Source: Chloroflexota bacterium
GTDB lineage: Bacteria > Chloroflexota > Chloroflexia > Thermomicrobiales > UBA6265
DNA: 64,000 nt
Reading direction: 5' to 3'
Assembly (NCBI GenBank): GCA_023389575.1
Contig: JAEWEG010000006.1
Location: 5,582 to 69,581 of the forward strand
Numbering within the stretch: position 1 is the stretch's first letter; the number at the start of each line of letters is the position of its first letter. The position numbers were made by a program, and so were the translations under genes. The notes under the pieces were generated by a model. That model saw nothing but the letters and a program-made list of their open reading frames with translations, had not been told where the DNA came from and ran no database searches. Positions 16,569-47,407 of the stretch are shown piece by piece.

Positions 16569-17663
16569 CTAGGCGATTGCCTCCAGCGTCGTGTCCGCGC
16601 CGGCGGTCGCTCCAACCAGGGTCGAGATCGCCGCGAGGTCATCGTCGTTCTCGGCGTCCGAGCGGTCGAAGTCGCTGAGCGCCATGTGCAGCACGCGCGC
16701 GCGGCGGTGAATGCGGTCCAGTTCGGCCGGGGTGATGGTCTGGTACCCATCGCTCAGCGCGTTGTCGGGGTCCGGGTGAACCTCCAGCATCAGGCCATCG
16801 GCGCCGGCGGCCAGTCCGGCCATCGCCATCCGCGCCACCAGCGATCGGCGTCCGGTCCCGTGGCTGGGGTCGACCACGATGGGGAGGTGCGAGACCTCCT
16901 TGATCGATGGCACCACGTTCAGGTCCAGGCTGAAGCGGAAGGCCGAATCGAAGGCGCGGATACCGCGCTCGCACAGCACGACGTTCGTGTTCCCGCCCGC
17001 CATGATGTATTCGGCGCTCATCAGGAACTCTTCCTGCGTCGCCGCGAACCCGCGCTTGAGCAGCACGGGCACGTTCGACTTCGCCACGCGTTTGAGCAGC
17101 GGGAAGTTGGCCATGTTGCGCGAGCCGATCTGGAGCATGTCAACGTAGCTGGACACCAGGTCCACCTGTTCGGGCTCCATCACTTCGGTAACGACCGGTA
17201 GGCCGGTCACCTCGCGAGCCGCGGCCAGCGCCTTCAGGCCCTCCTCGCCAAGTCCCTGGAAGGAGTACGGCGAACTTCGGGGCTTGAACGCCCCGCCCCG
17301 CAGGATGTTCGCGCCCGCGGCCTTCACCGACTTGCCAATCTCGATCTGGTCGGCGGTGGACTCGATCGAGCACGGGCCCGCCATGATCACCGGGTCGCCG
17401 CCGCCAATCGCGACATCGCCCACCATCACAACCGACCGCTCACGCGCTTCGATACTCGCCATCATGAAGGGCTTGTGGATCGTCTGGACATCCGCCACGC
17501 CGCTGAGGTCGAGGCCGTCCAGCGAGACGTTGCCCGCGATTCCGATAACCTCGCCACCGCGGCCATTGGCCATCGCCTGGCTGTGCAGGCCCCGCTCGTT
17601 GGCCAGCGACATCACGCGGTCCCTGGTTGATGAAGGCGCGTCTTCCGAAAGGTGAATCAACAT
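16569..17663 (-). CDS. aroF: 3-deoxy-7-phosphoheptulonate (DAHP) synthase, type I-beta, with N-terminal ferredoxin-like regulatory domain
   Basis: Core motifs IMAGPCSIES, ILRGGAFKPRSSPYSFQGLG, DMLQIGSRNM and IVVDPSHGTG. About 70 aa of N-terminal extra domain precede the barrel. Start at ATG 17663, preceded by GGAGACAGGAG (the ORF-track TTG 17741 lies inside the terminator region). Confidence 0.9.
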   Translation of the reverse strand: MLIHLSEDAPSSTRDRVMSLANERGLHSQAMANGRGGEVIGIAGNVSLDGLDLSGVADVQTIHKPFMMASIEARERSVVMVGDVAIGGGDPVIMAGPCSIESTADQIEIGKSVKAAGANILRGGAFKPRSSPYSFQGLGEEGLKALAAAREVTGLPVVTEVMEPEQVDLVSSYVDMLQIGSRNMANFPLLKRVAKSNVPVLLKRGFAATQEEFLMSAEYIMAGGNTNVVLCERGIRAFDSAFRFSLDLNVVPSIKEVSHLPIVVDPSHGTGRRSLVARMAMAGLAAGADGLMLEVHPDPDNALSDGYQTITPAELDRIHRRARVLHMALSDFDRSDAENDDDLAAISTLVGATAGADTTLEAIA

Positions 17664-17735
17664 GGTGTGCTCCTGTCTCCCGCTGTAGCTCTTCGCGAAT
17701 CGCTCGAATGTCCCGCCTTCCCGGAAATCTCCGGG

Positions 17736-17763
17736 AAACAAAAAACCGAGGCATGTGCCTCGG
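17736..17763 (-). terminator. intrinsic terminator (candidate attenuator) in the aroF leader
   Basis: The minus strand reads CCGAGGC-ACAT-GCCTCGG followed by TTTTTTGTTT. It sits about 75 nt upstream of the aroF ATG and 43 nt after the leader-ORF stop. Confidence 0.75.
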
Positions 17764-17805
17764 TTCCCCCTCGATCTCTAGCTTGCGTGTGGCAGTTGGC
17801 GCTGG

Positions 17806-17940
17806 TTAGCCAAACTGCCCCGCCAGCTGAGCTGGGGGGTTGGCAAACCAGTAATAGAACGACGAATTCGGCGAAGCCTTCAGGCTCACCGGGGTTTCGA
17901 TCCGCTCTTCGACTGGTGGGTTACTACGGTGTTCTTTCAT
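17806..17940 (-). CDS. candidate leader peptide, 44 aa, with five consecutive aromatic codons (FYYWF)
   Basis: ATG 17940 to TAA 17806 encodes MKEHRSNPPVEERIETPVSLKASPNSSFYYWFANPPAQLAGQFG. TTC TAT TAC TGG TTT occupies 17859-17845. The ORF lies between a promoter-like element and the terminator, upstream of DAHP synthase. Confidence 0.55.
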   Translation of the reverse strand: MKEHRSNPPVEERIETPVSLKASPNSSFYYWFANPPAQLAGQFG

Positions 17941-17949
17941 AACACACGC

Positions 17950-17978
17950 AGCGTAGCCGCTGGAATTCCTGGTGTCAA
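17950..17978 (-). promoter_or_regulatory. sigma-70-like promoter candidate for the aroF leader
   Basis: The minus strand reads TTGACA (17978-17973), a 17-nt spacer, then TACGCT (17955-17950). The leader ATG starts 9 nt after the -10 box, implying a leaderless or near-leaderless transcript. Confidence 0.5.
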
Positions 17979-18188
17979 TACCCTTCGCCATGTGTTCCGT
18001 CCTTGAGACCGTCCCACCGTACATCCGGCCGGAAGCCTGGCGAACACGGGACTGGTACTGGCGGGCTCGGCGCATCCGGGGCACAATCGCATGCACACGC
18101 CCAGTATCCCGGGGACAGCGGCCCGCCAAGAAGTTTGGCGTCTTCCGGCTCCTCCCCAACCCGGATCGTCGCTTGTTGAGGAGCCCAC

Positions 18189-19349
18189 ATGCTCGTCCGA
18201 TTCATTCGCAGCGAACCGGCCGCGGCCGTCGTACTTCTCGCCGCCGCCGCGCTGGCGATGATTGTCGCCAACTCCCCCCTCGGCTCGACCTACGAGGACG
18301 TGCTGCATGCCAATGTCCTGGGACTCTCCGTCCTCCACTGGATCAACGATGGCCTGATGGCGCTCTTTTTCCTGCTGGTGGGAATCGAGATTAAGCAGGA
18401 ACTGTTTGGAGGATCGCTTTCAGCCTGGGGAGCGCGGGCGCTGCCTGGCATCGCCGCACTTGGTGGAATGGTCGTTCCCGCCTTGATCTTCGTCGCCGTC
18501 AATGCCGGCGATCCCGATCACCTTGCCGGATGGGCAATCCCCTCCGCGACCGACATCGCCTTCTCCATCGGCGTCCTCGCCCTGATCGGATCTCGTGTTC
18601 CGGCGGCCATCCGTGTCATTCTCGTCAGCATCGCCATCATCGACGACCTCGGCGCCATCGTGATCATCGCGCTGTTCTACTCGTCGAACCTGGCATTCGG
18701 CTGGCTGGGATTGGCCGCCGTTTCAATCGCCGCGCTGGTGGTGCTCAACCGGCGACATGTCTACTCCCTGATTCCCTATGGCCTGGTGGGACTCGCGCTG
18801 TGGATCAGCCTGTACCAGTCTGGCATTCACGCCACGCTCAGTGGCGTGGTGCTCGCCCTCGCCATACCGTCGCGAAATCCGGATCAACCCGAACGCTCGC
18901 CCATGAAAGTGACGGAGCATGCGTTGCTGAACTGGGTGAATTTCGGAATTCTGCCACTGTTCGGGTTCGCCAATGCCGGTGTCGCGTTCTCCGGGCTGGA
19001 GCGGTCGGATATCATCGGATCCCTTCCGATCGGCGTGGCGCTCGGCCTGTTCCTCGGCAAGCAGATCGGCATCTTCAGCGCCATCTGGCTGACGATCAGG
19101 TCTGGCCTGGCTCCGATGCCCGCGGGCGTCACCTGGACCCAGATCCACGCGATGGCCGTCATCTGCGGAATAGGGTTCACCATGAGCCTGTTCATCGGCG
19201 GACTCGCCTTCGCCAACGATCCGCACCTGCTCGATGCCACCAAGGTGGGCGTCATTGGCGGCTCGATCTGCTCGGCGGTCGTCGGCACGGTGCTCATGCG
19301 CCGGACCCTGCGCGATAACACCGTTGAAGACGTGAGCGCCTCGACCTGA
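18189..19349 (+). CDS. nhaA: Na+/H+ antiporter NhaA
   Basis: 386-aa polytopic ORF with NhaA segments HWINDGLMALFFLLVGIEIKQEL, WAIPSATDIAFSIGVL and IAIIDDLGAIVIIALFY. Confidence 0.92.
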   Translation: MLVRFIRSEPAAAVVLLAAAALAMIVANSPLGSTYEDVLHANVLGLSVLHWINDGLMALFFLLVGIEIKQELFGGSLSAWGARALPGIAALGGMVVPALIFVAVNAGDPDHLAGWAIPSATDIAFSIGVLALIGSRVPAAIRVILVSIAIIDDLGAIVIIALFYSSNLAFGWLGLAAVSIAALVVLNRRHVYSLIPYGLVGLALWISLYQSGIHATLSGVVLALAIPSRNPDQPERSPMKVTEHALLNWVNFGILPLFGFANAGVAFSGLERSDIIGSLPIGVALGLFLGKQIGIFSAIWLTIRSGLAPMPAGVTWTQIHAMAVICGIGFTMSLFIGGLAFANDPHLLDATKVGVIGGSICSAVVGTVLMRRTLRDNTVEDVSAST

Positions 19350-19413: not shown

Positions 19414-20820
19414 CTAGACGTTCTTGACCTCGGTGATCAACTTGCCGAGCGAGTCCTTCGCGTCTCCAAAGAGCATCGACGTCTTCGGGTTGTGGAACAG
19501 TTCGTTCTCGACTCCGGCGAACCCCGGGCTCATCCCTCGCTTCAGCACCAGCACGCTCGCCGCTTCGTCCACGCGGAGGATGGGCATCCCGTAGATTGGG
19601 CTGCCCGGGTCGTCCCGCGCCGCTGGATTCGTTACGTCGTTCGCCCCGATCACCAGCACCGCGTCGGTCTTGGCGAAGTCGTCATTGATCCGGTCCATCT
19701 CGTACAGATCGTCGTACGGCACATTCGCTTCGGCCAGGAGCACGTTCATGTGGCCAGGCATGCGACCCGCCACCGGGTGGATGGCGTACCGCACGTCCAC
19801 GCCTCGCTTCTGGAGCTCCGCGGCCAGCTCCTGCACCGCGTGTTGGGCTTGCGCCACCGCCAGGCCGTAGCCCGGCACCACGATCACCCGTTGGGCGTAG
19901 GCCAGCGAGACCGCGGCGTCGTCCGCCGTCACCTCATGGATGGGCCGCTCCTCCGCCGCGTCACCGCCAGCCTTGCTGGATGTGGCGGTCGCGCCAAACG
20001 AGCCAAAGATGACGTTGGTAAGCGACCGGTTCATCGCCTTCGCCATCACCAGCGACAGGAAGACACCTGAGGCGCCGACGAGCGAGCCGCCGATGACCAG
20101 CAGCGGGATATCGAGTACGAAACCGGCCAGCACGCCAGCCACGCCGCTCGCCGCGTTCAGGAGCGCGATGACGACCGGCATGTCCGCGCCGCCAATCGGA
20201 AGCACGAGCAGTAGGCCCGCCGCCAGCGCGATAACGAATGTCAGGAGCAGGAAGACCTCGGCGGTGGCTCCCGTTCGAGCCCAGATCGTGATGGCGCCGG
20301 CGAGAGCCATTCCTCCAATCAGCCCGGCGGAAATCGCCTGCCGGTTCCCGATCACGGTGGTCTTGGCCTTGATCAGGCCCTGGAGCTTGGCGAAGGCCAC
20401 CAGGCTGCCGGTGGCCGCGATCGAACCGATGATGCAGCCGAGGACAACGGACAGCACCGTCGTCCGGTCCATGTCCGACTTGCCCAGGAACTCCGTCACG
20501 GCGATGAGCGCCGAGGCCGCGCCGCCCATGCCGTTCAGGATCGCGATCATCTGCGGCATGGCGGTCATTTGGACGCGCTGCGCCATCAGGTAGCCGATGC
20601 CGCCGCCGATCAGGATCGCGATGACGATGAGTACATAGTTGCGTTCAACCTCGGCCAGGAAGAACGTCGCGATCGTCGCCAGACCCAACCCGGCCGCCGC
20701 GAGCTGGTTTCCGAACGGCGCCGTCTTTGGAGAACTCAAGCGATTAAGCGAGATGACAAGCATGATCGCTGAAATGAAGAACGCGGCATCGATCCACGCG
20801 TCGCGCCAGTTGTCGATCAT
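19414..20820 (-). CDS. pntB: NAD(P) transhydrogenase subunit beta
   Basis: 468-aa. N-terminal membrane domain plus C-terminal NADP(H) domain (VIVVPGYGLAVAQAQH, AGRMPGHMNVLLAEA, GANDVTNPAA). The start overlaps the pntAB stop (ATGA). Confidence 0.92.
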   Translation of the reverse strand: MIDNWRDAWIDAAFFISAIMLVISLNRLSSPKTAPFGNQLAAAGLGLATIATFFLAEVERNYVLIVIAILIGGGIGYLMAQRVQMTAMPQMIAILNGMGGAASALIAVTEFLGKSDMDRTTVLSVVLGCIIGSIAATGSLVAFAKLQGLIKAKTTVIGNRQAISAGLIGGMALAGAITIWARTGATAEVFLLLTFVIALAAGLLLVLPIGGADMPVVIALLNAASGVAGVLAGFVLDIPLLVIGGSLVGASGVFLSLVMAKAMNRSLTNVIFGSFGATATSSKAGGDAAEERPIHEVTADDAAVSLAYAQRVIVVPGYGLAVAQAQHAVQELAAELQKRGVDVRYAIHPVAGRMPGHMNVLLAEANVPYDDLYEMDRINDDFAKTDAVLVIGANDVTNPAARDDPGSPIYGMPILRVDEAASVLVLKRGMSPGFAGVENELFHNPKTSMLFGDAKDSLGKLITEVKNV

Positions 20821-46833: not shown

Positions 46834-46917
46834 TCGTATACTCCATGAAAACTTCCCTCGATGCCCCTCGCCGCGTCTCCCGCCTCCCTACTCCGTGAAA
46901 TGTCGAACAAACAGAAA

Positions 46918-46941
46918 CGCCCGGTGCCGAAGCACCGGGCG
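46918..46941. terminator. second, bidirectional-looking terminator hairpin
   Basis: 10-bp stem CGCCCGGTGC / GCACCGGGCG with a CGAA tetraloop. ATTTTGTT follows on the plus strand and TTTCTGTTTGTT on the minus strand. Confidence 0.68.
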
Positions 46942-47407
46942 ATTTTGTTCTGCTCGATCACTGCCGAGGGATACCAGCCGGACCGTGATCGAAAGGTCTG
47001 GCTTCGGAGAGGAAAGTTGTGAAGTGGTACTAACATCCATCGTTTCCCTCAGGTGTTAGCACACTGTTGTGGGGAAGATGAGGATAGTGTTGTGCCAGGC
47101 GACCGGCTAGCTTCGCCCGAGGCGGCTAAGGAATCTCCGGACCGCGATGGATTTGGAATGACATGAGTCTGGATGTCATCGCGTTCCTGCTTGGCCCAGC
47201 GTCGTCAGTCACGTTGGTCGTGAAAGCGGCGAGCCCATGGTTAGATTTTCAACGTTCTGTACATCGCCGGAGCGGTGTGCGTCTCTCTTCTTGAGTCGTC
47301 TGCGACTATCGTAGCATCGCGATATCGTGTTGTCTACCCCTCTGGCGATATTTGTGATGAATTGCACGACCAAATGGGTAGGTGCACGTATTCGACGCCT
47401 TGCTGGC

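Follow-up and report, generated by a model that had tools for sequence, protein, structure and literature searches.

A candidate ribosome-mediated attenuator reading Phe, Tyr and Trp codons upstream of aroF in Thermomicrobiales

Introduction

How might one short leader adjust the enzyme at the entry point of the shikimate pathway, 3-deoxy-D-arabino-heptulosonate 7-phosphate (DAHP) synthase, to the supply of three different amino acids? The question is raised by a stretch of 64,000 nucleotides (nt) from a Chloroflexota bacterium (assembly GCA_023389575.1, contig JAEWEG010000006.1, positions 5,582 to 69,581; hereafter the window), in which the DAHP synthase gene aroF is preceded on the minus strand by a small open reading frame (ORF) with five consecutive codons for phenylalanine (Phe), tyrosine (Tyr) and tryptophan (Trp), by GC-rich hairpins and by an intrinsic terminator. 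An annotation made from the letters alone (the original prediction) had proposed that this arrangement is a ribosome-mediated attenuator. If one leader does read the charging of the tRNAs for Phe, Tyr and Trp, it would be a compact way of integrating three end products, placed on top of allosteric control via the N-terminal domain of the enzyme, and it would extend leader-peptide attenuation of aroF to the Chloroflexota.

In Corynebacterium glutamicum a leader peptide has been shown to control aroF, and such control has been proposed for Acholeplasma. The Corynebacterium precedent, mentioned correctly in the original prediction, is aroR (PMC11802643), and in the aroR-aroF attenuator, as summarised there, ribosome stalling at aromatic codons raises transcription (Neshat et al., 2014; PMC11802643). 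The aroR peptide carries a Phe-Tyr-Phe motif and, according to the same summary, responds to limitation for Phe and not for Tyr (PMC11802643). The Acholeplasma element, uORFC-13-1, is a conserved upstream ORF (uORF) that, with its promoter elements, adjoins an intrinsic terminator and occurs exclusively before aroF (Brewer et al., 2021; PMC8632094). It has a ribosome-binding site, a U-run encoding Phe and an extra conserved base-paired element, is confined to Acholeplasma and environmental sequences, and has been proposed to sense the speed of amino-acid incorporation (PMC8632094). An aromatic aroF leader in Chloroflexota was not found described in the searchable literature. The element described here would apply this known sensor logic in a further lineage, with each leader reading three amino acids and with an unusual output stage.

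A leader with Phe, Tyr and Trp codons is conserved upstream of aroF

We found that a promoter, a leader ORF, an aromatic codon run, a GC-rich hairpin region and a terminator lie upstream of aroF in 22 out of 22 Thermomicrobiales loci, these being the loci with enough upstream DNA for the conservation analysis (enzyme identity 56-92%). The promoter, the 44-codon ORF, the FYYWF codons, two of the hairpins (A and B) and the terminator that had been read from the window were all confirmed on the minus strand (Table 1), and conservation of the small ORF with its aromatic run and then a terminator, which had been named as a check, extends to all 22 relatives. Searches against Rfam gave no T-box, riboswitch or leader-family match at E <= 10 in positions 17400-18300, as had been suggested for a control, and over both strands of the entire 64 kb no family reached its gathering score. 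The conservation and the lack of a competing Rfam family support the attenuator of the original prediction. Based on these sequence comparisons, we consider it likely that a ribosome-mediated transcription attenuator ties the expression of aroF to the supply of charged tRNA-Phe, tRNA-Tyr and tRNA-Trp.

The aromatic codons themselves are exceptional in their surroundings. Among the 127,996 six-frame codons of the window (64% GC), FYYWF is the sole run of at least four aromatic codons, and the expected number of runs of at least five is 0.055. Orthologous leader ORFs are 28-53 codons long, and their aromatic clusters take many forms, including FYYWF, FYYYWF, WYYFWF, WFYFGFFY, YWFYF and WFYAFYF. 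Every one of the 22 leaders contains at least one Phe, at least one Tyr and at least one Trp codon. The leader peptide otherwise drifts among orthologs, save for the aromatic run and a PPA.L.G stretch that is constrained at the level of the RNA, as described below.

The leader ATG at 17940 lies 9 nt past the end of the -10 element and has no Shine-Dalgarno sequence, which implies, on the strength of a transcription start placed from the promoter sequence, an mRNA that is leaderless or nearly so. Leader ORFs of high-GC organisms are often found on leaderless transcripts. We observed the same arrangement in the 21 orthologs whose stored upstream DNA reaches as far as the -35 element (that of L001 ends short of it): all keep TTGACA-N17/18-TA(C/G)NNT at 6-10 nt ahead of the start codon, without a Shine-Dalgarno sequence. 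A consensus scan for promoters and terminators listed neither the leader promoter nor the leader terminator and gave two weak sites at 17962-17948 instead. The promoter went unlisted because its -10 element matches TATAAT at three out of six positions, which is below the threshold. The terminator, with a stem of 9 bp, a loop of 4 nt and 7 T among the 8 nt that follow, seems to meet the stated criteria of that scan, yet it was not reported.

The leader terminator is predicted to function as such from its sequence. A strict scan of the 64 kb, requiring a perfect stem of 7 bp or more and then 6 or more T within 8 nt, returned two loci, and the leader terminator is one of them. The terminator is present in all orthologs, with a U-run of 6-7, and shows a compensatory change from GAGGC/GCCUC to GAGAC/GUCUC. 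It lies 30-115 nt ahead of aroF in the orthologs, and 76 nt separate the U-run from the ATG in the window. We also considered whether aroF has its own promoter past the terminator and rejected this, since none is conserved across the 22 loci and some orthologs leave 30-37 nt only, which is too short for a separate promoter. A second promoter between terminator and aroF is thus probably absent, judging from the sequences.

Two further observations concern the terminator region. Directly past the U-run lies hairpin E, and CCCGG...CCGGG-like hairpins recur past the terminator in many orthologs when judged by eye. An AUG in the terminator loop (ACAUG) opens a second ORF of 104 codons (17440-17754, minus strand) that overlaps aroF out of frame; this candidate was rejected, as the AUG is missing in several orthologs. 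The loop AUG recurs with the loops ACAU, AUAU and UCAU (each followed by G) and is lost with AACA and CAAC, and it is probably meaningless.

Table 1. Coordinates of the leader features, of aroF and of the second strict terminator in the window.
Feature	Position	Strand	Description	Basis
Promoter	17950..17978	-	-35 TTGACA (17978-17973), 17-nt spacer, -10 TACGCT (17955-17950)	sequence
Leader ORF	17806..17940	-	44 codons plus TAA (17808-17806): MKEHRSNPPVEERIETPVSLKASPNSSFYYWFANPPAQLAGQFG	
Segment a0	17902..17922	-	AACCCACCAGUCGAAGAGCGG; predicted to pair with the aromatic codons from upstream (helix P1, 5' domain)	folds
Regulatory codons 28-32	17845..17859	-	UUC UAU UAC UGG UUU = Phe-Tyr-Tyr-Trp-Phe	
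Hairpin A (a:b)	17818..17839	-	CCCCCCAGC-UCA-GCUGG(C)GGGG; -20.5 kcal/mol	
Long hairpin	17766..17839	-	74 nt; alternative to hairpin A; -39.9 kcal/mol	
Hairpin B	17819-17791	-	spans the leader stop codon; inside the long hairpin	
Intrinsic terminator (predicted)	17736..17765	-	AACCGAGGC-ACAU-GCCUCGGUU then UUUUGUUU; 9-bp stem; U-run 17745-17740 (UUUUUUGUUU)	
Hairpin E	17720..17735	-	CCCGGA-GAUU-UCCGGG, directly past the terminator U-run	sequence, fold
aroF	16569..17663	-	type I-beta DAHP synthase, 364 aa; ATG 17663; Shine-Dalgarno AGGAG 17674-17670	
Second strict terminator	46910-46949	both	bidirectional, CGCCCGGUG-N6-CACCGGGCG, T-rich tails on both strands	strict scan

Two exclusive hairpins and three spacing rules

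The structure, spacing and folding analyses were made on 20 leaders. In the window, folding stability is unusual throughout: the z-score is -5.5 for the whole leader, -3.8 for a 79-nt segment with the hairpin and -4.2 for the segment with the terminator. According to the original prediction the layout matches the classical trp, pheA and his attenuators, a match that the folds do not support on one point: in 19 out of 20 leaders the nucleotides of the aromatic run pair with an upstream partner (229 nt paired upstream versus 4 nt downstream in the folds), whereas the regulatory codons of Escherichia coli trpL, pheL, hisL and thrL pair downstream only.

Past the run, the RNA can fold in two ways. 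Hairpin A, which in the window can be extended to 17844-17809 via GCCAA:UUGGC, has a predicted energy of -15 to -20 kcal/mol across the leaders. It is the RNAalifold consensus helix, and every one of its pairs is kept in 17-20 out of 20 sequences; by formal count 98% of its cells are paired, with CG->UA and CG->GC double changes. Taken together with the terminator, 96% of positions are paired against 37-59% for slid partners, and the observed covariation was reached by none of 500 shuffles. The stretch that encodes PPA.L.G coincides with this hairpin, and its residues vary (A/V, L/S/P, G/E, P/S) with the base pairs kept. We therefore rejected nascent-peptide arrest via PPA.L.G as the main constraint, and selection in this stretch is, judging from these substitutions, acting on the RNA.

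The alternative to hairpin A is a long hairpin, predicted in 20 out of 20 leaders with a length of 65-88 nt and an energy of -34 to -51 kcal/mol. Its basal helix a:d joins CCCCC (17839-17835) to GGGGG (17770-17766) in the window, and its apical loop holds the leader stop codon. The first five pairs of a:d are 98% standard, in a count that was anchored on each sequence's own predicted fold and so leans towards pairing; they include CG->GC and CG->UA double changes, and none of 1000 partner permutations reached the observed value. Divergent leaders keep the basal helix with other sequences (CCGGCGUU:GACGCCGG, CCGGUUUCGCC:GGCGAGACCGG, CCGCCGGUGUUGUC:GACAGCACCGGCGG and UCCC:GGGA). The C-rich segment a, immediately past the run, belongs to both hairpin A (a:b) and the long hairpin (a:d plus b:c); the two folds are mutually exclusive, and each is conserved.

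The long hairpin is held in register with the ORF and the terminator in all 20 leaders. Its base lies 4-7 nt past the last codon of the aromatic run, and 0-2 nt separate the end of its 3' strand from the terminator arm. The stop codon falls within 5.5 nt of the hairpin centre (mean -0.1, standard deviation 3.7), and this position is kept as hairpin span and ORF length vary (r = 0.77, a correlation uncorrected for phylogeny). With the stop codon at the hairpin centre, a ribosome that finishes the ORF must unzip the whole 5' strand. The helicase boundary of the ribosome lies at about +11 from the first P-site nucleotide. Taking this boundary, a ribosome on the last aromatic codon would have the hairpin base at its mRNA entrance, outside its footprint.

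Some minor features of these strands were also noted. The G-rich strand d (17766-17775) resembles the 5' arm of the terminator (17757-17765), as in UCGAGG|CCGAGG in the window, ACCGAGGGGGG|AACCGAGAC in L170, ACCGGGG|ACCGAGG in L005 and ACAGC|GCAGC in L010. Segment a resembles the 3' arm, and the terminator 3' arm could therefore pair with either of d and its own 5' arm. The C-rich arm of hairpin E can likewise pair with the G-run of d, which would enclose the terminator. An extension of the basal helix into the terminator via UGGUU:AACC was rejected, as it needs free Trp and Phe codons, which are never free, and is lost where the terminator arm starts with AGCC.

A proposed mechanism without an RNA antiterminator

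If the element is an attenuator, transcription would start at most about 3 nt from the leader AUG, and the leaderless mRNA would be translated at once. When all three aromatic aminoacyl-tRNAs are ample, the ribosome would clear codons 28-32, unzip the 5' strand of the 74-nt hairpin and halt at the central stop codon; with the hairpin opened, the terminator directly behind it would work, and most transcripts would stop near 17740. A shortage of any one of them would leave the ribosome waiting on the aromatic run, 4-7 nt ahead of the hairpin base, which would then stand at the mRNA entrance. The stalled ribosome would cover the 3' strand of the upstream domain and face a long hairpin that is still closed, termination would be suppressed, and transcription would read through into aroF. 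The direction of regulation proposed here follows from the physiology of a biosynthetic gene, which requires read-through when the ribosome stalls. We infer that the long hairpin and the position of the ribosome together form the switch.

For the last step we prefer, as a tentative choice that is possible and still short of probable, a steric suppression of the terminator by the stalled ribosome. The basal helix a:d would bring the stalled ribosome (at the 5' end of a) and the polymerase (at the 3' end of d) to one and the same helix terminus, which would keep the terminator stem from closing fully inside the RNA exit channel. A ribosome at the hairpin tip, or the absence of any ribosome, would leave the terminator free. 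Such a model would reproduce the classical truth table without an RNA antiterminator and would account for all three spacing rules. A conceptual parallel is pyrBI of E. coli, where the ribosome physically keeps the terminator hairpin from forming; there the leader ORF extends across the terminator, and the coupling is linear. If the steric version is right, the ribosome itself would be the antiterminator in both cases; in contrast to pyrBI, the Thermomicrobiales ORF ends some 40 nt short of the terminator arm, and proximity would come from the folding of the hairpin. The reading as a whole, that this is an attenuator without an RNA antiterminator, in which a collapsible hairpin, flush with the terminator, joins stalled ribosome and polymerase at one end of a 5-bp helix and lets the ribosome block a terminator about 100 nt away, a finishing ribosome halts at the point of the hairpin farthest from the terminator, and one leader integrates three end products, is in our view rather doubtful. 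If it is true that the ribosome or a flush helix, and not a competing strand, suppresses the terminator, this would be a new coupling of translation to termination. The sensor run, the alternative helices and the terminator of the leader are those of the textbook, its three spacing rules are precise to the nucleotide, and it lacks the textbook antiterminator, which makes it a clean test case.

It is important to point out that several observations weigh against this account. The leaders are phylogenetically related, and the counts given above therefore overstate the number of independent observations. The basal helix a:d could re-form around a ribosome on the stop codon, and the steric model must therefore rely on the distance from the ribosome. 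If the stall is at the first aromatic codons, 3-12 nt of slack remain, and a strictly steric effect would be weaker. Folds of the full-length transcript with the ribosome masked kept the terminator in every state; these folds are uninformative, because E. coli trpL also keeps its terminator in all states. Lastly, we folded transcripts cut just before the terminator 3' arm, with no ribosome, a ribosome stalled on the run or a ribosome at the stop codon, and found no conserved antiterminator that captures the terminator 5' arm at the stall in the 20 leaders. Between 0 and 7 nt of the arm were paired, and the partners differed between orthologs and between the stall codons of one leader.

The same cut-transcript folds do detect the classical switch. 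The E. coli controls (trpL, pheL and hisL, verified at 100% identity against E. coli genomes, and thrL from MG1655) gave, as nucleotides of the 5' arm paired with no ribosome, at the stall and at the stop codon, 2, 5 and 0 of 7 for trp, 0, 9 and 0 of 10 for phe, 4, 9 and 4 of 13 for his, and 1, 9 and 0 of 10 for thr. Consistent capture of the arm at the stall was seen in the controls only, which is the second point on which the match to the classical layout is not supported. The original prediction had cautioned that no convincing antiterminator pairing could be found by eye, and the difference between the 20 leaders and the controls indicates that this caveat reflects a real property of the element.

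Might the antiterminator simply be cryptic? A classical attenuator of this kind would work by a stall that frees the 5' strand of the upstream hairpin, after which a CCUCGG-like patch or segment a would pair with the terminator arm ACCGAGG. In 19 out of 20 leaders the aromatic codons make up the 3' strand of a hairpin with an upstream partner, and release of the 5' strand would therefore be common to stalls at any aromatic codon. A sliding-duplex search for partners of the arm did bring up a CCUCGG-like patch that recurs 40-60 nt before the end of the run, together with weak pairings of segment a to the 5' arm: about 13 out of 20 leaders have CCUCGG, CUUCGG, CCCCGGU, CGGUU or UCGG there, at -8 to -13 kcal/mol (in the window CCCCGGU at about 17894-17888), and in L163, L168 and L170 the arm is unpaired without a ribosome and has 5-7 nt paired at the stall. 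However, the partner is inconsistent in both position and sequence, and 3-7 nt are paired against 9 out of 10 in the E. coli controls. Neither the patch nor the pairings of segment a covary with terminator variants; the GAGAC terminators of L167 and L170 have no matching GUCUC patch. A helix of 5-6 bp that spans more than 100 nt and a ribosome would also hardly beat a local 9-bp GC hairpin. Compared with shuffled sequences, arm pairing has a mean z of about 0, in a test of low power that did not flag even a strand's own known partner and on which we do not rely. We regard a cryptic antiterminator as unlikely.

The spacing between the long hairpin and the terminator also bears on a reading in which the integrity of the hairpin alone sets termination. 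The closed hairpin would sequester the G-run of d (GGGGGAA), which would otherwise extend the terminator, or the flush and rigid helix would hinder completion of the stem. Terminators gain strength when an upstream A-tract pairs with the U-tract, and freeing d lengthens the predicted terminator stem from 9 to 13 pairs via G/A:U. Strand d ends at the same 0-2 nt from the terminator in every leader, and small changes in the efficiency of a strong terminator produce large fold changes in read-through. Nevertheless, the folds predict that the basal helix closes again around a ribosome at the apex, which would make the stalled and non-stalled states alike; an untranslated transcript would read through, unlike in classical attenuators; and the core terminator is strong already, with an arm duplex of -15 kcal/mol followed by U6. 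Control by the hairpin alone is in our judgement quite improbable.

Comparison with known leaders and with aroF loci of other phyla

Compared with trpL, pheL, hisL and thrL, the Thermomicrobiales leader follows the same general plan: the short ORF of the leader contains a run of end-product codons, an intrinsic terminator precedes the structural gene, the stop codon lies where the finishing ribosome disrupts a hairpin, and mutually exclusive helices have one segment in common. It differs in that the E. coli codons form a 5' strand with a downstream partner and the Thermomicrobiales codons pair upstream; in that segment 2 of the E. coli leaders captures the terminator 5' arm at the stall and nothing conserved does so here; and in that the shared segment a lies outside the run and one leader senses three amino acids. 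The C. glutamicum aroR leader, compared by its published description, is analogous in its genomic arrangement, with an aromatic leader peptide before aroF in a high-GC host. It belongs to another phylum, and its peptide, as described in that summary, carries Phe and Tyr only, whereas the Thermomicrobiales leaders always contain Phe, Tyr and Trp. Like uORFC-13-1, the Thermomicrobiales element is a uORF adjoining an intrinsic terminator before aroF; by comparison with the motif description it is set apart by the lack of a Shine-Dalgarno sequence, the mixed Phe, Tyr and Trp codons, its GC-richness and the 65-88 nt hairpin.

We also surveyed aroF loci from many phyla, and found an aromatic-dense short ORF upstream of aroF in 53 out of 147 loci on the sense strand, compared with 3 out of 147 on the antisense strand. 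This suggests that aromatic aroF leaders are common across phyla yet absent from Rfam, in which none of them is found as far as scans of the kind run on the window show, and that the principle is therefore widespread. The distant loci, mostly Firmicutes from a metagenome scan, served as an out-group only. Aromatic aroF leaders of Clostridia have the classical layout with downstream pairing.

These data bear on the question of whether the small ORF is a sensor at all. The terminator might instead be a leaky constitutive one, or be controlled by a trans-acting protein or small RNA, with the aromatic run being part of a functional micropeptide or incidental. The failure to find an RNA antiterminator and the conservation of the hairpins at the RNA level would fit this. 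Against it, the runs vary in order and keep their content of Phe, Tyr and Trp constant in 22 out of 22 leaders as the remaining peptide drifts, and the association of aromatic-dense leaders with aroF recurs in unrelated phyla with unrelated RNA sequences. Moreover, the hairpin is fixed to within a few nucleotides relative to both the run and the stop codon, which is sensible only if a ribosome reads it. We therefore judge an ORF without a sensing role to be highly improbable.

Several details of the cross-phylum set were noted in passing. Most of its aromatic-dense leaders have no Trp codons. Gut metagenome-assembled genomes (MAGs) of Clostridia, Lachnospiraceae and Ruminococcus (among L012-L160) carry aromatic-dense leader ORFs before genes for type I-beta DAHP synthase, for example at L121/L124/L125, L149/L154/L155/L160, L087/L092, L067, L050 and L042/L066/L073. 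Examples of these leaders are MNRTYFFAYAYYFTMTI, MKSIFVFAYYYYFTMDS and ...NAYFYYFWFTRQ, with a longer class represented by ...FYSFFYFMFWGFYFSAGYF.CKK. A GC-rich leader (MNRFWAGYFWFYF...) lies about 380 nt upstream of aroF in a member of the Pirellulales (Planctomycetota, L057). It has a GC hairpin directly past the aromatic run, like the Thermomicrobiales leaders, and its ORF as read runs through the terminator hairpin and U-tract (…GSRGFFCFF…), which resembles a pyrBI-like layout.

The aroF gene and its neighbourhood

The product of aroF matches Pfam DAHP_synth_1 over residues 77-319 (E = 1e-74) and aligns with the DAHP synthase of Thermotoga maritima (1RZM) over residues 16-311. Since the alignment begins at residue 16, the enzyme has the region of the N-terminal regulatory domain, in agreement with the original prediction, which had attributed such a domain to it. 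The closest genomic relatives are MAGs of Sphaerobacteraceae and Thermomicrobiales within the Chloroflexota. Upstream synteny varies among the Thermomicrobiales loci (L162, L163; L164-L167, L170-L172), with either pntB directly upstream or a divergent gene for an Fe/Mn superoxide dismutase. In the window, a divergent nhaA (18189-19349, plus strand) lies between the leader promoter and pntB, the gene for the transhydrogenase beta subunit (19414-20820, minus strand).

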